Part shown: positions 32,948-53,400 of the stretch, in pieces
Numbering within the stretch: position 1 is the first letter of the stretch
Layout: each line of letters opens with the position of its first letter
Virus record (IMG/VR): IMGVR_UViG_3300021255_002539
Coordinates: 128,001 to 192,000 of that record
Origin: a virus
Lineage: Duplodnaviria > Caudoviricetes
DNA length: 64,000 bases
Direction: 5' to 3' (one strand)
The notes under the pieces: generated by a model
Seen by the model: only the letters and a program-made list of their open reading frames with translations
Told to the model about the DNA's origin: nothing
Databases searched by the model: none
Program-made: the position numbers and the translations under genes

Positions 32948-34627
32948 TTATATTTCGTTTCCGTCGTCATCCGTGACAGTGACAGAGTTTTCGTTCGGCT
33001 TGTTATCCTTGTTGTCGTTGCTGTCGATGTTCACAGCCCCAACCTTGACAACTTCATCTTCTGGAGTCTTCTCTGGTTTTTCCACCTCTTGCTCCTCCTT
33101 GCCCTTCACGACCTCCACCTTCTTTGGCTTGTTGGGGTCTTCCTTCTTTGGAATCTGTTTGGATTGCTCGATGTCCTTTTTCGTCTTCTGCTTCGCCTTG
33201 ATCTCGTGTCCAACATTCTTCGCCTTTTCCTTCTGTGCCTGCTCCTGCTTGGCCTTCTCTTCCTTCTCCCTCTGTTCGTCGTCAATCCTCTTCTGCTCAA
33301 GTCTGTCGATTTCCTGCTTGATTTCCACATTGAACTTGGGGAAGAAGGACGATGGGGACTTCTTGGCGTCCAGGCAGTTGTCCACCAGGAAGCACTTGAT
33401 GGTGTGATCCTCCCCTGGGGTGAAGTCCTGTCCATAGAAGTATGTCGCCTTGCCACGTATCTTGGTTCTCCTGGTCCGATACGAATATGGCGCAACCCTT
33501 CTGGATATCGTCTCGCCATCCACTGTCTCGTACTTCAGCCACACCATCTTGCGGTTCTCTGCGCACCAGGCGATTGTATCCCACATGTCGTCGAGTGATG
33601 ATTCCCTGAGCAATCTCCTGCGACTTTTCCTCCTTCTGGTCGGTCTCTCGTCAGCTTGTCCAGTGACGAACCTCTTTCCGATTGGCATTGGGGCGTTGAC
33701 GCCTGGAACCTCCACATCGTCAACTATCCACTTGCCACCCTTTGAGGCGACACTCACGCCACAGAACTTCATGGTGTAGGTGTTGTTGACGATGAGCCAC
33801 TTGGTGTAGATTGGAAAGGATGTCAACACGTCATCATCACCATTTCTGATGATGCGCTCTATGTGTTGCTCCCCAGAGGACATGTTCTCGAAGTCGCCTA
33901 TGAACACGGCGCCAGTGGAGATGTCAGTGCCAAACCAACACAGGTCTATGAGGTCTTTGTTGGTGATTCGCACGTCCATGTAGTCACCCCTTTGCATCCA
34001 ATGTTCCTTGGCGTATTGCCTCAACTTCTGACCACATTGGAACATTATTTCGTGGAACATCTTCCTGGCCTTGCAGACATAGGTGGCGTTGGTCTTCTTG
34101 TGTGAGATTCCATAGAGGGTGCCATCGGTCAACCTCACTGTCGTGTCAGAACGGTTCTGCTCCCCATTCGTCCCATGGCTTGCAGATGCGTCTATGACCT
34201 CAACTATGTCCAGTTTCACCCTGACTCCATAGTTGTCAGAGATGTCGAGGTGGCAAACGCCATTCCTCTCGATTTCATCCAAGATGAACTTCTGAAAGTC
34301 CTCTTCGTTCTTCCTCCCCGCCCTGTGGCTGCCACCCTTCTTGATTCTGACCACTATTGGCTCTCCCTCGTCCTCTTCCTCATCGTCCAAATATGTCGGA
34401 ATCTCCAGGGTGTAGCCATCCTTCTTCGTTTTCCTCGGTGCGAGAAAGTCAATTCCCAGTTTCGGGCCGATGACCCTCACCAATTCCCTTCGCATTGCCT
34501 TGGGGTCAGGGGTATTGACTTGCAGAACCCTGTAGTCTTTCCTCACCTGGACGATTTGCACATCCAGACCTTCAACTTCTTGAAGAAGGTCGAAGTACTC
34601 GTCTATTGTGTTCGCTTCAGTTTTCAT
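32948..34627 (-). CDS. PD-(D/E)xK-like nuclease fused to a WYL domain, with a charged tail
   Basis: E..RSD..YGISHKK nuclease-like motif. After LLRE|S comes a WYL pattern, VWLKYETVDGETISRRVAPY..YFYGQD..IKCFLVDN. Confidence 0.6.
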   Translation of the reverse strand: MKTEANTIDEYFDLLQEVEGLDVQIVQVRKDYRVLQVNTPDPKAMRRELVRVIGPKLGIDFLAPRKTKKDGYTLEIPTYLDDEEEDEGEPIVVRIKKGGSHRAGRKNEEDFQKFILDEIERNGVCHLDISDNYGVRVKLDIVEVIDASASHGTNGEQNRSDTTVRLTDGTLYGISHKKTNATYVCKARKMFHEIMFQCGQKLRQYAKEHWMQRGDYMDVRITNKDLIDLCWFGTDISTGAVFIGDFENMSSGEQHIERIIRNGDDDVLTSFPIYTKWLIVNNTYTMKFCGVSVASKGGKWIVDDVEVPGVNAPMPIGKRFVTGQADERPTRRRKSRRRLLRESSLDDMWDTIAWCAENRKMVWLKYETVDGETISRRVAPYSYRTRRTKIRGKATYFYGQDFTPGEDHTIKCFLVDNCLDAKKSPSSFFPKFNVEIKQEIDRLEQKRIDDEQREKEEKAKQEQAQKEKAKNVGHEIKAKQKTKKDIEQSKQIPKKEDPNKPKKVEVVKGKEEQEVEKPEKTPEDEVVKVGAVNIDSNDNKDNKPNENSVTVTDDDGNEI

Positions 34628-34637
34628 GTTCGCCTCC

Positions 34638-37600
34638 TCAATCAAACTTCGCCCAGGATGGTATGCTCCAGGACGGGTGGAACTCGTGGAACACCTCAAG
34701 GCATCTTCCAATCTCGTGTCTCGTGTCGGGGTTCTGCCACATGTCAGAATCCACAAGCGCGTCCCAGGCGTCCCTTGGAGTCAGTATGTCGTCGCTCGTG
34801 AGGGTCTTGTCGTTGTAGAGGAACTGCACTATCTCGTCGGGGTCGTTCGTGACAAGTTGCTTGTCCACCACGCTCCACTTCGCATATGTGCCGTTCTTCT
34901 TCTGTTTCCTGGCGCGCCGTATTCTGTACAACCCCACTCGGTAGTCGTAGTCGTACCTCGTCATCTCAACTGGTTGGTTCTTGCCCTCGCCTGGTATGTC
35001 GGCGGTGGCAGTGACCTCAACATGCCCGCCTCTCGCAATAGCTGTGAACAGTCCGTTTCTGAACCCACTCTTCGGATTCACATCTTCGTCAGCCTCGCCG
35101 TTCTATACCTCCTTCAGGTCAGGCGAGAACATGCCCCACTTGGTGAACTTCATGCTGGGGGTGAGGCACAGATCAACCTGGACATACTCCCCTTCCTGCT
35201 CCCCGTCCACATTCTCGATTGGAAACGCATACGATGTAGCAGTCCATCCGTCGTTCTTGTTTATGGAGTGGTCTACGCCCAGCCTGTCTGCCACATCGTA
35301 GCACAGGTCTATGAACTCCTCTGGGGTGTTCAGTCCATTGGCGTCAGCCAGAGCCTTCTGGTCTATGGCTATGTCCAGGTCGCCCGATGTTGGCTTCTTG
35401 CCAGCAGACCCAACCAGTTCTATGGAGCCGTCTGGGAGGCTGAACGCCTGTTTCAGCGCCTCAACAGCCTTCCTAGCGGTCTCTGGTATGTTCGCCTTGT
35501 TAATCCTAGTTGTCTGCACCTTCTTGAAGTGCTTGTCTCCACTTTCGTTCGTCATCTTCGCCTTCCTATTCTACTGTCCTGCGTTGAACTTGTCTGCCCT
35601 CGCTTGGTCTGTCATGGATGGGTAGTCCCCACTCTCTGGGTTCATCAACTTGTACACTTCGTCGAATTGCTGGTCGGACAGTTCAGATGGAAGCACCTTT
35701 TTCAACGCCTCCTTGTCGTCAATGTGGTCTCTCACATAGGTCGCTGATATGTTGGAATCCCCATCTGTGGTCGCGTTGATTGCGTTCTCCTCTATTGGCA
35801 ATATCTCCACATTCTGAAGTGTGTCCTTGAATCTGTCGGTCGTAAATGCACTGAACCTGGACATGTCGTCCTTCTTGGACAACCCAAACATGACCTTGCA
35901 GTTGGAGAAGTGGCGCACAGTTGCAGAAATCCAATTCATCGGGTTCAGTGTCATCGCAATCTGAACATTGTCCAAATGGGCAGCCTCACAATATATCTCC
36001 AGAATCTCGCCAGCCACGAAGTTGGGCATGGAGCGCCCGAACTTGTCGTATCTTTGGGACGCGACATTCGTTTGCCCAGACACAGCGACAATCACTTCGT
36101 CGCATATCTCGGCATAGTGCCTTATCATGTCGAGGTGTCCCTTGTGTGGCGGTCTGAACGAGCCAGGAATCAGCGCTATCGTCTTGCCATTCTGGTCCAC
36201 GACCTTGCCATCCACCATCTCCACGAGGGACATCACATCGTTCGTGAGCAGGTTGGGGTCGAACCTCTTCGGAAGACCTTCCGCCCTCGCCTTTGAAATC
36301 TTGTCTATGAACCTGGGGAGGTCTGTCCTTCCCTTCGCGTGCGCAGCCAGTTCTTGTGCTCTGTCTATGTACTTGGGCAACAACTCCTCGTACTTCGTCT
36401 GGTACTCCTGTGGGTTCTACCGTATTGCGTTCACCATGGCGACCAGGCTCCCCTTCTCGCTCTTGCCAGTTATCGCCGACAGAAACCTCTTGGTGAAGTC
36501 CGACATCTCGTCTATCTCAGAGAAGTAGCCATTTCTGATGTCCTTCCAAGATTGGTAATGTATGCCATACAGGTTGCCCTTCAACTCAAACGCAACTCCC
36601 TCCAAAGAACCATCGTCTGCCTTCATTATGTCGGGGTTCTTGAACTTGCGCTTCATTATGTCAGTGAGGGCGGCGTTTATCTTGTCCCTGAGCTCCTCTG
36701 CCTCCTGCTTCTTCATCTTGTCTATGGTTGCTGTATTGAAAGCCTCAACCACATCATCTCCAAAGTCCTGTGCCTTGAGTTCCACCTCCTGCGCGAACTT
36801 GTTGATGTCGAAGTAGGATGCGTTGGCGTCTGACAGCTATGAGCAGGCGAAGTCCACGACCTTCTTCTTCGTTTCTGGCTCCAGGTCAAACGCCTTTTCC
36901 TTCGTCATCCCCTTCACATCAATTATGACCAGTGAGCCACGTCTGCCCAGTTTCTTTGCGTCGTAGGTGGTTCCGACATAGGTTATGGTGCCATCGTCGT
37001 CTGCGAACTCGTCGCCGTTGGAGAGCAGTTCACCAACCAACTTCACGCCATCCAGACCCAACCCCTTCACGAACTTCGCCATCTTCTCGTTTTGGTTTTC
37101 CTCCACATAGGTGAAGAAGTTCAACTCGTGGTCGTGCACCTGTGGCGTGGCTTCAGCACCTTGTCTGTCGAGCAATCCAGAATACGAAATCTCCATCAGA
37201 ACCTTGCCATCCAGCCAAGCCACCCTGAACGGGTAGCCGTCAATCTTTGGCGTGACCTTCACAATCAGCGTGGAGTCGTTGACGCTCGATATGAAGTCGT
37301 GCAAGAATTGCCTCAATTGCTTCCCTGTGAGTTGGTGTATCTTCGTCATTGCCTGGCGTGGCGTGTCTATCTCTGACATGTCCTTGGTGCTGCCGATGGA
37401 CTCGTCGACCTCCTGTGTTGTGTAGTCAGATGCCTTTAGCCCAAGGAAGTCCTCTAGTTCAGGTGGAATGTAGTCTATGTTGCCTTTCTTCAGAGGCCGT
37501 TCCAGTCCAGTTCTGAGAGACTTCTTGAACTGCTCCATCCTCACCGGGTTCTTCAATATGCCTTGCTTCTTCACTGCGTTCCAAGCATCTTGCCAAGTGA

Positions 37601-39437
37601 GCATGTTGGCAGAATCAACTCCAAACAGAATCTCGCATATCTCGTCTGGGTCGTCGGTCACCAATTCCCTGCCAACTTCCTTTTCGCCCGAGACATGGAT
37701 TCCCTCTTCTCCCTTCTTGCCCTTCATCAAAGGACGCTCAAATGTCTTCTTGAACAAACCACCTTCTTCATGTGTATAGGAATATCTTTCCCATTTGGTT
37801 GGTTGTTCCTCGTCTCCCATTCCATTGACAAGTCCAGTGTCAAGAACCCTGAATCCAGACACCCTTGCTGCTGCAGTGATTATCTGATTTCTCACCAGAC
37901 CCTTGACATACTGCTCACCCTCCACTTCTTGTGGACCGAATTGCCCCCACGCCTGGAACTTGAGGTTGTCCACTGGGATGAGGTCCAGCTGCACCACTTG
38001 ACCTTCCTGCTCTCCATCGTCGTTGCTGATTGGGTAGCCAACGGATGTTCCCTGCCACTCCCATCTCGGAAAGTTCTTCACCTCAAGCCCGTACTTCCTG
38101 CCGAACTCGTCGGCGAGGTCGAACCACTCTGAGACATCTGTTATGCCATGCTTCTGCTCCAGCGCCTGTTTGGATATCGCTATGTCGATGTCTCCGCTTG
38201 AGCCAGAATCCAGCTTCTTCCCCGTTGAGCCAAGAAAGGACACCTCGTCCTCAGACAGACCAAAGAAGTCCAGAACCTTCTGCTTCGCCGAGTCCATGGT
38301 GGACTTCGCGTTGCGCTGGTTCAGCCTTACTGCTCCTGGTATCCTCTTGCCACCCTCCTTCACCAGGGTGCTTTCGGTAACGGGCCTCCCATGACCATCT
38401 GGTCCGTCTGGGTCTGGCTTCTCTATCCCCAGCTCGTCCAACATCTCCTGTGGCATCTCCAATCCGTCGTTGATTCTATCGAGCAGCTTCTTCTTCATCG
38501 AGTCCACGAAGATCTGCCACTGCTCTGGGTTCTTTGCCCATTCGGCATCGTGTGCTGCCCTCCAGCATCCATCCCAGGTGAGCAAGTCCTTTCCCTTCAC
38601 CTTTGGTCCGAACATCAGCTTCGCAATCTTGTCAGGGTCGTCAGAAACCAGAGTGCGCTTTGTCCTGGACTTGTCCAGACCCTGGTTGTACACAGGACCC
38701 TCCACGCCGTCTGGGAGGTTCTTTGGCTGGTTCTTCATCAGAGACCGCTCCTTGTGCCACTTGTTCAGACCCTCAGGGGTGAAGAACACATACTCCTCCC
38801 AGACCACGGGCTCCTCCACGAATCCTCCATCCTTCTTCACAGTGCCAGTCTTCAGCACCTCCATCTTCTGCATGGCGTGGGAGGCAGCCTCAAGAACCAG
38901 GTTCCTTATCACGCCCTTGATGTACTTCTGTCCAGCAATCTCCTTTGGCGCGTACCTGGACCAGGCCTAGAACTTCATGTTGGTCGTTGGCATGAGGTCT
39001 ACCTGAACGAACTGACCCTTCTGCTTTCCATCGAAGTTCACAATAGGAACCCTTATGGAGAACTGCTCAACCTGGAAATTGTGCTTCAGACCCAACTTGT
39101 CCAGTATGGGTGATGCGTACTGGTTGAACTCGTACGGCTTCCTCGCAAATTCGTACTTGTTCGCGTCAATGCCAATGTCGAGGTCGCCAGATGTGGAGCC
39201 TGGCAGCTTCTTCGTGACAGAGCCAACTGGTTGCGTGTCCTTTCTGTCGATTCCCAGAGCAGGAAGTATCTCGTCGTAGATGTACTTCAGCGTTGCGGCC
39301 ACATTCTCCTGGTTTATCCTGACTGTGTCGTCGAACATCTTTCCACTTTCAAGCAACAACTCCTTGGTTTCGCCAACCAGGATTGTCCTCAAGTCGTCAG
39401 CACTCATTTCACCAACTACATCTTCTATGTTGTTCAT
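34638..39437 (-). CDS. 1599-aa polyprotein: 3 Pol-beta-type nucleotidyltransferases, a KxDG ligase-like domain and an HxGH nucleotidyltransferase (5 TAG read as Gln)
   Basis: Six ORF-track fragments share one frame, separated only by TAG at 38967, 36837, 36417, 35571 and 35103. Motifs: GS..K..SGD(L/I)DI..Q(V/L)DL three times, TPKIDG..EGVAF, and PGSFRPPHKGH. Confidence 0.85.
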
Positions 39438-39477
39438 GGTCTATTGTGTCTCTCTTTTGGGAAGTTCATGTCTTGTC

Positions 39478-39509
39478 TATTTACCATTTCAACAAAACAA
39501 AGGTAAATA
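39478..39509. promoter_or_regulatory. Divergent pair of late-promoter motifs (GTAAATA)
   Basis: Minus-strand copy at 39478-39484 and plus-strand copy at 39503-39509; resembles the T4 late promoter TATAAATA. Confidence 0.7.
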
Positions 39510-39517
39510 GTGTCATC

Positions 39518-41437
39518 ATGGATACGACAAGCAAGAACACTGTTGTGCTGGAGGGTGGACACATGCCCTTCAAGAACGACAAGGGGGAGATGTTGGAGGT
39601 TTCACCCATTGACCAGGATAATGCCGCAGCCACCCTCGACGACATCCAGGACAGGTTCATATCTGGGTTTCTGCATCTGGACCCAAGCGAGGACACCGCC
39701 ACCCTGGGTTCCACTGGCAAGAGGTTGAGTGGGGAGTAGAGTTCTGACATTGACATAGCCATAGACTATTTCAAGCTGCAAAAGGAATGGGATTTGCCAG
39801 ATTGGACAGGGAAGCGCATTGAGGAATGGGTGGATTTGGCAAGGTCTGGCGCAGAGGAATGTGGAGTGGAGTTTTCCATGGTTTCCACGGTGTGTTCATT
39901 GCGCTGGCCGATAGTGAACGACGATGGAAAGCAAGAGGACCAGTATGTTCAGGTTGACTTGATGCCGACAACCAACATGAAGATGACAAGGTTCGGAAGG
40001 TTCTCCCAGTAGCAGAGGGATGGAGAGACCTTCTTCAAGGGGTCGGTCAGGAACATCATGTTGGCAATCATGGCAAGATGCGCATACCACAAGGATTTGA
40101 CTGACGAGACCCATGTGAAGGTTCTGTCGGACGGCACCGAGAAGGAAGTCCACAACGAGTACGAGGGGTGGACATACGACCAGAACACGGGTCTGCACCT
40201 TTGCCACAAGAAGTATTAGCAATACACCAGAAATGGAAATGGATTCAAGAAGGGCGATTGGAAATCCCATGCAACTGTGGTCGATTCCCCAGTGATATCT
40301 TCTGACCCCGACGAGATTTGCGAGATGATATTTGGCAAGGGCGTTACCCCCGACGATGTTGACACAGTTCAGAAGATGTGGAGGGCGTGGAAGAGTTCAC
40401 CTGCTGTCAAGGAGAATCCAGACTTGGTCGAAGAGGTGAAGATTCAGGTTCAGCGGTCAGCACAAGGCAATCCAGACATGACATTCCCAGACTTCGATGG
40501 TGAGGAATTCGTAAATGAAGCCAGGGTGAAGAAGGATCCAACCGAGCAAGTCGACGAATACATCAAGTCCCTGTCAGAAGACCAGATTCAGACCCTCACA
40601 TTGAGGTGTTCTGAACTCCTGGACAAGTGGGACGAACCACAGGGTTCAGACACAGTCCTCAGAGTGAGGCAAGTGGTTGGCAACGACGAGAGGTTCCTGA
40701 AGTTCCTGCGAAAGACAGTTCCATTGACCGAGCCAAAGGTCAGGGACATGGGGGCAAACACCTTCGTTTCGCATTTCTTCGACCCACCATTTGACAACGA
40801 GGCGTTCATAGGCAAGATGGCGAAGGAGAAGGGTATACCATTTACGCAAGCTGAGGAAGAATGGAATAGATCCAATTTGGACAAGACCCACGTTGGGAGG
40901 TATGCCCATATGCTTGCTGACGATGCCGTGAATGGTAGGCCACCATCAAAGGAGGGGACGAACCCCAAGGAGGTTGCGATATACGAGGCTGTGTACGAGT
41001 ACGCCAAGAATCTGGTGCAGGGTGCGTCTGATGTCGAAAGCGAGGTTTCCCTACATGCTTCAAGCGTTACGGTTGGTGGCAAGTTCGACCTGATGATGAA
41101 GAAGGGCAGCCAATGGGTTTTGGTGGATTGGAAGACCAATGGTGAGGAGCTTGAGGACATACCCAATGGCAAGGTTGGTCTGGACGAATTGACCAAGAAC
41201 ATCAACAACAACGCCTACAACAAGTACGCACTTCAGTTGAATGTATACGAGTGGGCAGCAAAGGACAGTGGCAAGATACCGAAGAATGCTGTCGTGAGCA
41301 AGGAACTCCACCACTTCCAGTACCTTGAGGATGGAAAGCCAATTCAGATTAGGGTTGTCAAGGTTCCAGACCTTCAGCCACTGGTTCAAGCAATGGTGGA
41401 CAGGGCGGTAGAACTTGGCGTAGTCAAGCGCAAATAA
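39518..41437 (+). CDS. Pol-beta-type nucleotidyltransferase fused to a RecB/Cas4-like PD-(D/E)xK nuclease (639 aa, 3 TAG read as Gln)
   Basis: LGSTGKR..SSDIDI..QVDLMPTTNMK. C-terminal GRYAH..E..GKFDL..VDWKT..YALQLNVY. TAGs at 39737, 40010 and 40217. Confidence 0.8.
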
Positions 41438-41480
41438 TTGTAAATAGAACAAGAAGAACCTACATAGAGGGAACAAGCAA

Positions 41481-42734
41481 ATGAAATTCAAGAAGATTGT
41501 AAGGGAAACATCCAATTTGGACGACATGGACTATGAAATTGCGCAGAAGATGCGGGATTTCGCAAAGAAGAACATTCCAGAAGTAAGAAATGTTGTTTCC
41601 GGAAGCGCAACTGGGCAGGTATATGTGATGCTCAAGCCCGATGTTTACATAATGGCTGATGAAGCGAAAGAAATCGCACGGGAATTGATACGCGCATCTG
41701 GCGCACGTGGTTATAGATATGTTGGTGTGAACAAGGCAGACCCATATATCGTCATTGCCAGAAGGGGAATTGCAAGCGAGGCGATGAAGAAGAGGAGGAG
41801 CAAGACGCATTCCAAAGATGCCGAGAAATACTGGTTTGGCATCAAGGACGCGGAGTTCATATACCACGGAGACTGGAACGATCCAGAGGTGGAGTACAAG
41901 GGCGTGTCGTTCAACTACTATGACATCGAGAGTGGATTGCTTGGAATATACCGTGACGAGCATCCAGAGGACAGGAACGACAAGGGATTCGACGAGTGGA
42001 TGGCAGCCCACCCAGAGGAAATCAAAAGCGAATTGGATATGCTCTACGACGCCGAGATGGAGTACAGGGCAAACAACCCAAAAGGGCAGTACAACGAGGT
42101 GGAGTACAAGCCTTCGCCTGAATACGACGATAGCTGGACTTGGGGCGGAAAGCGTCACGAATGGGGCGACACCTACGGAACACTGTGCAGTAAATACGGT
42201 CCGATGGTCAGCCTTGAGCAAAAGCACTATATCCAGAAGCTTGTGAAGGAGATAGCGGACGAGTTTGGCGTGAAGACCTACGATGGATTCAACAACCTCG
42301 TCTGCGTGTCCACCAATGGAGTTTCTGACGAGGATGCTGAAGACTTCATCCAGGAGATTCTCGACAACTATCCAGAGCTGGACTATGTTGAGACTGGGAA
42401 GCACTGGTTCAAGTTCGCGCTAAAGGAGGATGACTTCATTGACCATCTCGTTGACGACGACGACAATACGTATAAAGACATTGACTACAGCGGGTTGAGA
42501 AAATACGACGAGTCCTGGGTTGGGGACAAGGCGAAGGCTGGATGGAAGAAGATCAAGTCTGGCGCAAAGAAGATGGCGAAGGCTGTTGGCGATGTGTTCA
42601 AGGGTCCGTTTAGAAAGGGCGATCATATCGTCATGAGGGGCGAAGATGGTGAGGAGTTCAAGGGAACAATCAAGTCCTTCGACCTCGGAAACAAGACATA
42701 CGAGGTTTTGCTTGGAAATCCAGTTGGCGAGTAA
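41481..42734 (+). CDS. Putative multi-module head-internal protein
   Basis: MKFKKIVRE|T leader, internal IASE|A and YDE|S; GTAAATA at 41440. Confidence 0.65.
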   Translation: MKFKKIVRETSNLDDMDYEIAQKMRDFAKKNIPEVRNVVSGSATGQVYVMLKPDVYIMADEAKEIARELIRASGARGYRYVGVNKADPYIVIARRGIASEAMKKRRSKTHSKDAEKYWFGIKDAEFIYHGDWNDPEVEYKGVSFNYYDIESGLLGIYRDEHPEDRNDKGFDEWMAAHPEEIKSELDMLYDAEMEYRANNPKGQYNEVEYKPSPEYDDSWTWGGKRHEWGDTYGTLCSKYGPMVSLEQKHYIQKLVKEIADEFGVKTYDGFNNLVCVSTNGVSDEDAEDFIQEILDNYPELDYVETGKHWFKFALKEDDFIDHLVDDDDNTYKDIDYSGLRKYDESWVGDKAKAGWKKIKSGAKKMAKAVGDVFKGPFRKGDHIVMRGEDGEEFKGTIKSFDLGNKTYEVLLGNPVGE

Positions 42735-42754
42735 TTGGAGTGGCAGAAGATGAA

Positions 42755-42789
42755 ACGAAGATGGGCTGGATTTCTCCAGCCCATTTCGT
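42755..42789. terminator. Hairpin between convergent genes
   Basis: atgggctgga-tttc-tccagcccat inverted repeat. Confidence 0.65.
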
Positions 42790-42821
42790 CTATCATGTAG
42801 TTGACTCAACATGTAGTTGAC

Positions 42822-50462: not shown

Positions 50463-53400
50463 ATGGCAACAAGAGATTTGAGAGCACCTGGTGTGTCTAT
50501 CATTGAACATGATCTCTCTGGCTACACCACGACCAACATTGGTACTTCCTGCCTCATCACTGGTTTTGCGCAGAAGGGCGAGGACCTGGAGCCGATTCAC
50601 ATCACGAACCGCTCTGCATGGCTGCTCAACTATGGTGCGCCAACCAACGAGGCCGAGGAGTACTTCTACAACGCAGGCATGGAGGTACTGAACCAAGGTG
50701 GCTTCCTTTACGCCGCGAAGATACCCTATTCAAACGACATGGCGGGAATCTACGCTGCATCCAAGTTCATAGTTGGAAAGAACCAGCCAATCTACAAGCA
50801 GAATGCAGATGGGTTCTTCATTGCTGACGAACTGAATGATGATGGAAGCGAGATTGAGATAATGGATGATACTGGGACAAATCCCCTTAGTCCAACATCT
50901 CCAGAGGGTCGCTTCATCCGCAACTACAGGGGCTTGAAGGACTTGGGCATCAACACGCTTCAGCTTATCGCTCCAGCAGCACAGGACTTCCTCTCGAAGG
51001 ACTTGGTTGACGAGTACGAGTGTGGCGAGACCAGGCCGAACTCGAATGTCATCTACTTGGTTGACAAGACCCGTGCAGTTTACACCCGCGCACCAGAGGT
51101 TGCCGACAAGCAGGACAACCGTGATTCGCGCTACTGCATTGGCATTGTCCCTGTGATAACCACGATGTGCAACACAGCATGGTTCCAGAAGAATGTGACT
51201 GGCTTGAAGGCAGATGTGGATGAACTCTACCAGCCAGTCCGCTCCCTCAAGACGATTGAGTTCCCAGCGGGCGCTGCAAGTGCTGCTGAGTACAAGGCTA
51301 CCAAGTTCGTGGATTCCGACCTCCACACGCCTTTGATGAAGGACGACAGGGCGTTTGCGACATCCCTCTCTGAGATGGCCGCGACGATTGCCCAGTCTTG
51401 CTTGACGAAGGGTAACTTGGTTGATGGCAAGTTCAAGCCCTACATCTGCAACGATGTGGCTGTCGTTGTGTTCAAGGCGTTCGTCTCCACCGAGGACGGA
51501 AAGCTGGAGTTCACCCCAGTCGAGACTTTCGTTGGCTCCCTGGACCCTGATGGCAAGGACGAGAAGGGCCGCACGACATTCATCGACAAGATCGTGAACG
51601 ACAACTCCGAGTACATCTACTGCTTCTCCAACTTGGCGAATCCACAGCAGGTTCTCAATCCTGACCATGGTTTCGTCGCTGGCTCTGATTCTGAGTATGA
51701 CGAGGTGAAGAAGGAGATCAAGAACGACTTGGAGTACGATGCTGCCTCCTTGTTCTCTGCATATGCGGCGAGGATGCTTGGTTTTGACCACAACGAGTCA
51801 TCTGACATGTCTGGTCTTGCTGCTCCAAGGTACTTCCCTGAGGAGGTTCATGACGAGGACGATCCCACAAGCGAGTTGTATGATTTGTCCAGACGGACAA
51901 TGGGTTCACTTCGCCAGTTCTACAACCAGGACGCCAAGCACCGAGTGTGTGTTTTGGACGAACTGGTCTATGGTGGCAAGTTGAAGGAGGATGACTTCAA
52001 GAAGATTGTTGGAGAAGAAATCTACGGATACATCTCTGGACAGTTGACCGACAAGTACCTCAACATCGTGGACAAGTTCATCACAAAGACCCCTTCGTTC
52101 AAGTACGACTTGGACGCCAACAACAACGAGGGTTCTGTGAACTTCACACTTGAACAGGAGAAGGACTACGACTACGACATCGAGAACTACTCCTACAAGT
52201 TCACGATGGGTGCCGACACAGACAACAAGCAAAACGATTGGAAGGATTGGGTCAACGCAATCTCTGGAATGAAACTTGGCGAGTTGAACATCCTCAACTC
52301 CACCGACTACCTCCGCGCCATCTACGACTTCGACGAGTTGGTTGAAGCTGATGTATTGGCGAAGATTGAGGATCCAAGTGGGAATGTCCCTGATCCAGAT
52401 TCAGAGGAATGGGCGATAATCCGCCAAAAGGCAATCCAGGCGTTGGTAATCAACTCCATCGAGAAGTCCGGCAGGTTCAAGCTCAACCTCCGCAACCTCA
52501 AGAAGGCGCAAATCAACATCGACAAGCTCGATGACGCATTCGTCGCCTCCCAGAGCGCAGAGAAGGAAACCGACAAGGCAATTGGCAAGAAGTATGTCGA
52601 AGACCTGTTCAAGTCCTACAACGACCTTGGACTTCTCTCTGGTATCAACTTCGTGGATGTCGACAAGTAGTCGTCCTCCTCTTCTTCAAGCAAGTCTGAT
52701 GGGGACATCCTCTCCAAGAAGGACGCGCTTGAGGCTAAGCTCGACGCAATCGTGAACATCGACACGAGCAAGCCACAGAAGATGAAGCCCCGTCAGGGAC
52801 ACGATACCCCAACTGGTGGAGACGAGGACCTGGACTTCCTGGAGAAGTACCTCCGCGTGAGGATGTACCTTGAGGCGCAGTTCAACGCGAAGAAGGCCGA
52901 CCTCCTCTCTGCGATTGCCAAGATAATGGAGGATTGTTGCTACGCGCAGCAACGCTATGTCGAGGCAATGCGCAACAAGGACGACTCCTCAATCATGTTG
53001 GGCTTCTACCCAGAGATGGCTGAGCCAATCATCACCTACACCACAATCGCGCAGTCCCTCAACAAGATACTCGACACGATGAAGAACATCAACGAGTGCG
53101 ACATAGATGTGATGTGCGACGCGGGTGTTTCCAACATCGCCCAGTTCGTCAAGCAGGTCTACGACCCAAGCGCAGACGATGGCGAGGATGTTGGTGGTCT
53201 CTACAACCCAGTGAAGTACTCCAGCTACTTCAAGTTCAACAAGAACACGGATCTCGCCTACTGGAAGACGATTGTGTACAAGTTCGACACATTCTGCAAG
53301 TACCGTGGCGACTGCATGTTCTGCACAGAGGGGCCTCGTGGAATGGTTCTGATTGGAAACAAGCAGGTCGTGCGCAAGACCAAGAAGGACACGAACATCG

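Follow-up and report, generated by a model that had tools for sequence, protein, structure and literature searches.

Putative capsid-cargo polyproteins built from PolX-like nucleotidyltransferases and other enzyme modules in an uncultured phage

The window analysed here is a 64,000-nucleotide stretch of DNA from an uncultured phage with a genome of 414 kb. Two of its genes, A and B, each encode a string of independent enzyme modules bounded by the motif aliphatic-x-Glu↓small, where the arrow marks the predicted scissile bond. An aliphatic residue at P3 and a glutamate at P1, followed by a small residue, is the cutting rule of the T4 gp21-type prohead proteases (Peptidase S77), which raises the question of whether these proteins are precursors that are matured inside the capsid. 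The first-pass annotation had taken the range 34638-41437 to be a single polyprotein of this kind, but it consists of two divergent genes, A on the minus strand and B on the plus strand (Table 1).

The reading frame of gene A depends on the meaning of TAG. It contains five in-frame stops, all TAG, and the standard genetic code was rejected for this gene since it splits it into six ORFs, while translation of TAG as glutamine gives a single frame again. One TAG is placed opposite a Gln in the alignment with a paralogue, and 7/7 homologues have a Gln at residue 157. The assignment rests on alignment, because none of the 28 tRNAs predicted by ARAGORN is a CUA suppressor. The junction motifs listed in the first-pass annotation are all present, but only with TAG as a sense codon. 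A tblastn search against the GenBank phage collection gave matches in Lak phages only. The TAAATA motif of the region between genes A and B also precedes the genes for the scaffold and the protease. It is further present ahead of two ORFs whose N-termini, by eye, resemble those of an anaerobic ribonucleotide reductase and its activase; if so, TAAATA is no proof of late expression.

Table 1. Genes, predicted products and predicted cut sites of the locus, in window coordinates.
Feature	Position	Strand	Description
Gene A	34638..39437	-	1599 aa with TAG = Gln; NTase-1, NTase-2, ligase-like + HxGH, NTase-3
Gene A N-terminal leader	39348..39437	-	residues 1-30, ends LLLE30↓S31-G; conserved in close relatives
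Predicted product 1, PolX-like NTase-1	38373..39347	-	residues 31-355; core HMM match 41-320
Double junction PVTE355↓S + LVKE361↓GG	38349..38384	-	orthologues: xNE↓S, then h-x-E↓GG
Predicted product 2, PolX-like NTase-2	37401..38354	-	residues 362-679
Junction EVDE679↓S, before ligase-like module	37398..37412	-	pattern kept, sequence around Glu variable
Predicted product 3, KxDG ligase-like + HxGH adenylyltransferase-like	35544..37400	-	residues 680-1298; no internal site
Junction MTNE1298↓SG, before NTase-3	35541..35555	-	atypical, Thr at P3
Predicted product 4, PolX-like NTase-3	34641..35543	-	residues 1299-1599
Intergenic region A/B, divergent	39438..39517	.	80 bp; inverted pair of GGTAAATAG promoter-like motifs
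Gene B	39518..41437	+	639 aa; NTase-4 + PD-(D/E)XK nuclease
Junction FVNE334↓A, NTase-4/nuclease	40508..40522	+	conserved in orthologues
Gene C	32948..34627	-	559 aa; 11 nt downstream of gene A
Gene C site LLRE342↓S	33599-33613	-	follows basic linker
Gene directly downstream of gene B	41481..42734	+	begins with leader MKFKKIVRE↓T

The nucleotidyltransferase (NTase) modules contain the residues G64, S65, D77, D79 and D147, which are invariant or nearly so and correspond to a G-S...D-x-D motif with a third carboxylate. Foldseek retrieves Pol beta/lambda for their fold, although weakly (E 9e-4, TM 0.33-0.36), and these motif residues together with the palm-like fold place the modules in the Pol-beta superfamily. 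The NTase modules have no Pfam match, and the domains of the family, which comprises about 1000 cluster representatives, are without a match in the two libraries searched, Pfam and PHROGs. In the ligase-like module, K731, D733 and G734 of the KxDG motif, which is motif I of the covalent nucleotidyltransferases (ATP-dependent ligases and capping enzymes), are invariant, and searches gave no Pfam match and no PDB sequence match. The HxGH domain scores 26 bits to PF01467 (cut-off 21 bits) and shows weak matches to PPAT/NMNAT (best E 5e-5), with H1098, G1100 and H1101 nearly invariant. No peptidase, MuF or portal domain was detected in genes A and B with Pfam or PHROGs.

Gene B consists of a leader at residues 1-12 (VVLE12↓GG), NTase-4 at 13-334, the FVNE334↓A site and the nuclease at 335-639. 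A site of the FVNE334↓A type stays with the nuclease module where the upstream domain is instead a NUDIX domain. In gene C, the Glu of the site is kept in the orthologues (LMEE↓A, LLEE↓S and FLE↓R). The WYL domain that had been assigned to this gene was not upheld (Pfam 12.6 bits against a cut-off of 21.8 bits, E 0.15), and the gene has no Pfam or PHROG match, with nothing at E 0.01. The gene after gene B is one of ten mutually unrelated ORFs of the phage that share the leader M-K-[WF]-x-[KR]-h-x(1-3)-E↓[SAT], compared to 0 in shuffles. The neighbourhood of genes A and B contains recombination and replication genes, among the neighbours gp32-like, phosphoesterase, TnpB-like and DUF932 genes, and head genes are absent.

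The motif is present at every module boundary except that between the ligase-like module and the HxGH domain, and the earlier claim of a motif ahead of each catalytic domain thus holds with this one exception. The claim of a hydrophobic residue at every site likewise holds at all sites but MTNE1298, where gene A has Thr at P3 and the orthologues have V, L or F (MVKE↓GG, LVAE↓GG and FNE↓GG). Counted over about 50 homologues, the motif reaches a density of 2.40 per 100 aa in junctions versus 0.23 in cores, a tenfold difference that bears out the enrichment at domain boundaries. It was found in 80 of the 91 linkers that precede an NTase or ligase module, while about 17 were expected from shuffling each linker 2000 times. 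The four linker classes had the motif in 23/27, 32/34 (domain to NTase), 17/19 (domain to ligase) and 8/11 cases, compared to 4.3, 6.9, 4.1 and 1.5 expected. The linkers between the ligase-like module and the HxGH domain contain it in 0/22 homologues, and these two domains would consequently remain joined as one product. The motif is also portable, in that the unrelated NTase, ligase, nuclease and NUDIX modules each start after it whatever the upstream domain, and it occupies one aligned column in the four NTase copies of the window. Among 98 representatives, P1 is Glu in 80, the Met of the start codon in 13 and Asp in 0, and P3 is L, V, I or M in 82%. These results confirm that the association of the motif with the junctions is real, and it is stronger than could be seen when it was first noted. 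Internal initiation from a Shine-Dalgarno sequence and a start codon behind E-G-G was rejected as a source of the pattern: the codons differ and most sites have no downstream Met.

The phage encodes an S77 protease in an ORF of 245 aa, with a match to PF03420 above the cut-off (E 1.6e-12) at genome positions 349663-350115, and its termini carry the sites LITE↓S, LVKE↓S, ILE↓S and VVE↓S. In the capsid protein, a T4-like propeptide carries the site LFTE↓AA, which by our own count lies 34 residues upstream of the conserved P-x-V-M..RR block, similar to the 27 residues for FLTE65↓AE in T4 gp23. An S77 protease was identified in 10/10 complete genomes that contain the NTase family, namely 8/8 viral genomes, the source phage and Atu_ph07. 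All family members are from S77-bearing lineages, which leaves this co-occurrence without a negative control; the contigs with leaderless forms that were checked for the protease are fragments (9-38% complete), as are 25 further contigs.

Targeting leaders of the T4 type are N-terminal and 10-19 residues long. The stand-alone NTases have a 10-residue leader, M-K-T-F-K-Q-F-L-x-E, which is followed by GG and agrees with the capsid targeting sequence (CTS) of T4, MKTYQEFIAE (PMC8442874), at positions 4, 7, 8 and 10. As described in PMC9026906, positions 4 and 7 of the CTS are important for targeting and positions 8 and 10 for processing. The leader is dispensable, since 13 representatives lack it and start with M-GG, exactly at the predicted P1'. 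The leader of gene A is 30 residues and that of gene B 12 residues, ending in L-x-E and V-x-E, respectively, but both are without the aromatic pattern at positions 4 and 7 of the CTS and without the phage's own MKW-type leader. In the AlphaFold2 models, the leader and its site are located outside the confident fold, which fits the exposed position expected of a T4-type cleavage site: residues 1-14 of NTase-4 have a pLDDT below 50, and the protein P0043 has a mean pLDDT of 62 for residues 1-10, 89 for residues 11-20 and more than 94 for the rest.

A member of the family has been detected in virions. The protein gp65 of the cultured jumbo phage Atu_ph07 (AUZ94877.1) belongs to the NTase family (HMM E 2e-27, TM 0.71-0.76), and residue 3 of this protein, which starts with M-G-G, aligns with residue 32 of gene A in BLASTP. 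It was identified in the virion proteome by mass spectrometry (10 unique peptides, 36.8% coverage; PMC6102473 Table S5), in a PEG-purified preparation that also contained some replication proteins. The gp numbering was confirmed by mass matching.

The joints between the modules match the cutting rule of the head protease, and the modules of genes A and B are therefore predicted to enter the capsid as cargo, to be separated there by cleavage and to accompany the DNA into the cell, which we consider probable. With moderate confidence, genes A and B may be regarded as putative capsid-cargo polyproteins that are cut at their junctions by the prohead protease. The precursors would be produced alongside the head proteins, incorporated in the core of the prohead and then cut, which would give about four products from gene A (Table 1) and two from gene B, the NTase and the nuclease. 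The released products would remain in the head and pass into the cell together with the DNA. Their targets there would be nucleic-acid ends, which they would extend by nucleotides, ligate, adenylylate and trim, as suggested by the domain types only. The original proposal is thus retained in part. Its prohead-protease sites are consistent with the S77 protease, the T4-like capsid site and the conserved, portable Glu motif, but they are distributed over two separate genes. Its capsid cargo is in line with the CTS-like leaders of the stand-alone relatives and with gp65 in virions, but not with neighbours that are not head genes, and its release of separate enzymes agrees with the sites at the other module boundaries but not with the ligase-like module and the HxGH domain, which stay together. 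More tentatively, and with slightly less than even confidence, T4-like and jumbo phages may widely head-load a previously undescribed PolX-like NTase family with ligase, adenylyltransferase, NUDIX and nuclease partners by means of T4-style leaders, some of them as protease-cut polyproteins, and so inject an end-repair or modification kit that would act before phage gene expression.

An alternative explanation is that there is no cleavage. The aliphatic-x-Glu-Gly-Gly sequence would then be intrinsic to the N-terminus of the NTase, or a relic of the leaders of once-separate genes, the Glu residues at the other junctions would be ordinary linker residues, and the full-length enzymes would be cytoplasmic, with a role in, for example, RNA or DNA end repair. 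In the NTases the Glu is followed by a nearly invariant GG, a conservation that exceeds the need of a protease, and part of it therefore belongs to the NTase itself, while the four copies in the window share the motif by paralogy. The replication and recombination genes in the neighbourhood and the leaders of genes A and B, which are not CTS-like, also fit this explanation, as does the overall density of the loose motif in gene A, which equals the proteome average (6 seen versus about 5 expected from 0.31 per 100 aa). However, the leader is both dispensable and modelled outside the confident fold, and the unrelated ligase, nuclease and NUDIX modules carry the same boundary motif within variable surrounding sequence, whereas the linker between the ligase-like module and the HxGH domain of the same proteins lacks it in 22/22 cases. 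Furthermore, Asp, which according to PMC9026906 blocks processing in T4 when placed at P1, never replaces the Glu, and one family member has been detected in virions. An absence of cleavage is considered unlikely.

It is less probable still that the junctions are cut in the cytoplasm, by S77 or by a different Glu-specific protease, as a late timing switch or a zymogen activation without stable packaging or delivery. According to PMC12991175, CBASS CD-NTases are activated by a T4-type prohead protease, both in vivo and in vitro, and the lack of a canonical targeting leader in genes A and B is compatible with such a switch. Against this, the stand-alone relatives have targeting-type leaders, gp65 is virion-associated, and T4 cargo is processed in the prohead core according to PMC9026906. 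Chance placement of a short, loose motif near domain borders is extremely improbable and is refuted by the linker shuffles, of which 0/2000 reach the observed counts in the four junction classes, and by the densities in junctions and cores, with a column that aligns throughout the copies and homologues, even though the loose motif shows no enrichment in the genome (399 occurrences versus 391 expected) or at the N-termini of the phage proteome, for which use it is too loose.

If genes A and B do encode capsid-cargo polyproteins, a dsDNA phage would use its prohead protease for a polyprotein strategy, by which one gene gives rise to several enzymes in equal amounts that are all delivered with the genome. 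The large family would then represent virion-borne nucleotidyltransferases that act in the first seconds of infection.

[quoted passage not shown] Enzyme cargo that is delivered with the DNA is represented by Alt in T4 and predicted for genes A and B. However, the precursors from genes A and B contain several catalytic modules and internal sites, their own leaders are not CTS-like, and they are putative nucleic-acid enzymes, whereas the T4 proteins are small and basic or an ADP-ribosyltransferase. Atu_ph07 has an S77 protease and a ligase-like gene that adjoins the gene for gp65, but gp65 is a single-domain, leaderless protein that is nonetheless virion-associated, and the ligase-like gp66 is encoded by a separate gene and was not detected in virions.

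The giant phages phiKZ, 201phi2-1 and SPN3US also contain diverged gp21-type proteases, and many of their head and ejection proteins are described as cut after Glu, some of them at several sites (PMC5694885, PMC9026906). These proteases are said there to prefer S/A/G or A at P3, whereas the family studied here has L/V/I/M, as in T4. Their substrates mostly lose propeptides, and the accounts of processing in these two sources do not describe several distinct enzymes from one chain (PMC5694885, PMC9026906). A parallel in domain organization is offered by the polyvalent proteins, in which several unrelated enzymatic domains, including Pol-beta NTases, are joined in one phage polypeptide; packaging of these proteins and their delivery along with the DNA have been predicted, perhaps in processed form (Iyer et al. 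2017, PMC5512222). Genes A and B similarly hold two or more unrelated enzyme domains in one polypeptide. However, embedded peptidases are the proposed means of processing for the polyvalent proteins, which are often MuF- or portal-linked (PMC5512222), while no peptidase domain was detected by Pfam in genes A and B, and their junctions match a separate prohead protease.

The virus record is complete (414,060 bp with direct terminal repeats; bases 128001-192000 form the window). With the standard code, the region 34638-39437 is split into six minus-strand ORFs that share one frame; TAG accounts for each of the five interruptions of that frame, and its terminator is TGA. One of these codons, in K-F-TAG-A-W of gene A, aligns with K-F-Q-A-W in a paralogous domain, and seven of seven aligned homologs have Q in this column. 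No CUA suppressor tRNA was found by ARAGORN among the 28 tRNAs of the phage genome, so the glutamine assignment is based on the alignment. TAG is a sense codon in this phage, with glutamine as the best fit; the standard code hides many of its long genes. With TAG read as glutamine, the region 34638-41437, described in the first-pass annotation as a single polyprotein, separates into two divergent genes, A and B. Two long ORFs next to gene B overlap on opposite strands, and the plus-strand ORF is probably the real gene since it lacks TAG and has a shared leader.

Positions of genes, ORFs, and sites (window coordinates unless otherwise stated)
Feature	Position	Strand	Description
Gene A	34638-39437	-	1599 aa, TAG = Gln
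Gene B	39518-41437	+	639 aa; divergent from gene A across an 80-bp spacer
Gene C	32948-34627	-	559 aa; follows gene A at 11 nt
A/B spacer	39438-39517		GTAAATA as inverted pair, CTATTTACC-N13-GGTAAATAG
E-S-G-K-M	39336-39347
E-G-G-H-M	39554-39565
Overlapping ORFs, extent	41424-42812
Overlapping ORF, leader-bearing	41481-42734	+	directly after gene B
Overlapping ORF	41424-42812	-
Leader-bearing ORF	56869	-
Ten leader-bearing ORFs, including those at 41481 and 56869	genome 16006, 95935, 121757, 150793, 169481, 184869, 212188, 213864, 215161, 390060
Probable scaffold gene	genome 203488-204558		356 aa
Atu_ph07 gp65/gp66 locus	52163-53137		gp66 overlaps the gp65 start by 11 nt

The N-terminal part of gene B is 31-33% identical to three stretches of gene A, so the two genes together hold four paralogous nucleotidyltransferase (NTase) domains. 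Each bears the G-S, the D-x-D, and the third Asp of the Pol-beta signature. The family has no match in Pfam or PHROGs, and AlphaFold2 models (pLDDT 87 and 96) weakly resemble Pol beta/lambda. Between NTase-2 and NTase-3 are two further modules, a ligase-like module with an invariant K-x-D-G and an HxGH domain (PF01467) with weak PPAT/NMNAT matches. At its C-terminus, gene B carries a PD-(D/E)XK nuclease (Pfam, PHROGs). The WYL domain previously assigned to gene C falls below threshold.

The junction motifs quoted in the first-pass annotation are all present in the translations of genes A, B, and C. In a four-way NTase alignment, L-L-L-E-S-G, L-V-K-E-G-G, M-T-N-E-S-G, and V-V-L-E-G-G share one column block, about 10 residues ahead of a conserved R-I-N-Q-x-N. 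The loose motif is not enriched across the whole of gene A (6 observed, about 5 expected); the signal lies in the placement of the motif rather than its number. The Glu at the gene C site is conserved in orthologs. The first NTase of genes A and B and of their orthologs has a Met after the site (E-S-G-K-M, E-G-G-H-M), and several database gene calls begin at a Met just past a site of this type; a second, leaderless isoform starting there is conceivable, though unsupported.

A word-indexed search yielded 23 multi-domain relatives, and an exhaustive profile search 1026 cluster representatives, most of them stand-alone and about 290 aa long. Core HMMs that leave out the motif set the module limits for about 50 multi-domain proteins, which differ widely in module order, and [LIVMFYWC]-x-E-[SGA] was scored in the linkers against 2000 shuffles of each. 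Counting related homologs, which are not independent events, the motif occurs in 23/27 linkers between the N-terminus and an NTase (4.3 expected), 32/34 between another domain and an NTase (6.9), 17/19 between a domain and a ligase (4.1), 8/11 between the N-terminus and a ligase (1.5), and 0/22 between a ligase and HxGH (2.3). The first four counts were reached in 0/2000 shuffles. The proposed enrichment at domain boundaries was borne out, with 2.40 motifs per 100 aa in flanks versus 0.23 in cores of the multi-domain homologs. The claim that every catalytic domain follows a motif holds for NTase, ligase, and nuclease boundaries but not between ligase and HxGH. The same motif separates NTase C-termini from NUDIX, nuclease, and other domains, and accompanies the nuclease even when NUDIX is upstream. 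The residues around the Glu differ while the pattern is kept (V-D-E/S, V-S-E/S, L-D-E/A, I-L-E/A, F-F-E/A; slash, predicted cut). The junction motif is genuine, conserved, and portable, and its type is that of the T4 protease.

Among N-terminal NTase representatives, the residue before the cut (P1) is Glu in 80/98 and Asp in 0/98, and P3 is L/V/I/M in 82%. T4 leader processing requires residues 8 and 10 and is blocked by Asp at 10 (PMC9026906). In the giant phages phiKZ and SPN3US, the proteases favor S/A/G at P3 (PMC5694885), so the P3 preference places the junction rule with T4. The phage genome encodes a T4 gp21-type prohead protease (S77), the termini of which bear such motifs, and the propeptide of its capsid protein is homologous to that of T4 gp23. 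By hand count, L-F-T-E/A-A is 34 residues upstream of the conserved P-x-V-M..RR block, compared to 27 for F-L-T-E65/A-E in T4; MAFFT puts the two sites about 10 columns apart. The gene that directly precedes the capsid gene has a high density of h-x-E/S or A motifs and probably encodes a scaffold, which the protease would degrade. The T4 gp22 scaffold is degraded by the T4 protease. In several related contigs (G014, G015, G032-G034; loci L072, L074, L070, L076, L077), the S77 domain lies in open frames of 550-650 aa and is therefore fused to something else. S77 is present in 8/8 complete viral genomes tested with a stand-alone family member; no complete genome lacked it, and the other 30 contigs tested were fragments or incomplete (7-53%).

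The modal leader of the stand-alone NTases has 10 residues, M-K-T-F-K-Q-F-L-x-E, followed by G-G. It agrees with the T4 capsid targeting sequence (CTS), MKTYQEFIAE (PMC8442874), at positions 1-4, 7, 8, and 10, including four positions shown to matter. AlphaFold2 gives the leader low confidence and the chain high confidence from G11 on, and 13 representatives begin with M-G-G, exactly at the predicted P1'. The leader is not tied to one domain, since ligase-first relatives have other leaders with similar endings (V-I-L-E/A or V-V-F-E/S).

A single experimental result connects the NTase family with virions. The best viral Foldseek match (TM 0.71-0.76), also found by the family HMM (E 2e-27), is a protein of the cultured jumbo phage Atu_ph07, identified as gp65 by ten neighboring computed masses that match the published table exactly. 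It is among the listed virion proteins (10 unique peptides, 36.8% coverage; PMC6102473 Table S5), although the virions were PEG-purified and the list includes some replication proteins (PMC6102473). It begins with M-G-G, and BLASTP pairs its residue 3 with gene A residue 32, two past E30. The separate ligase-like gene gp66 contains E-K-L-D-G-S; gp66 and gp65 are the split form of the ligase-NTase fusions, and gp66 was not detected in virions (PMC6102473).

Ten phage ORFs begin with M-K-[WF]-x-[KR]-h-x(1-3)-E-[SAT], versus 0 in shuffled six-frame translations, and share no pairwise similarity past residue 12. This start is a candidate capsid-targeting leader, and it resembles the M-R-W-x-Q-L-x-E start of gp59-63, neighbors of gp65 that are all five virion proteins (PMC6102473). 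TAAATA lies 32-51 nt upstream of 8/10 leader-bearing genes, at -33 of the scaffold gene, -36 of the protease gene, -46 of gene A, and -14 of gene B, and precedes 61/421 genes genome-wide; 61 of the 118 copies of the promoter-like GTAAATA have a same-strand start 8-80 nt downstream. Two TAAATA-preceded ORFs have N-termini that by eye resemble those of anaerobic ribonucleotide reductase and its activase; if so, TAAATA does not prove late timing.

The most likely reading, which we favor with some reserve, is that the polyproteins of genes A and B are capsid cargo and are processed by the prohead protease. Gene A would then release three NTases and one ligase-like plus HxGH unit, and gene B one NTase and one nuclease. 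Several points count against it: neither gene A nor gene B has a CTS-like leader, their neighborhood is one of recombination genes, and the G-G conservation exceeds what a protease needs. Published frameworks account for the individual parts: the T4 CTS with gp21, head proteolysis in giant phages, and the polyvalent proteins (PMC5512222). In the literature covered on these subjects, no multi-enzyme chain with prohead-protease joints was found described.
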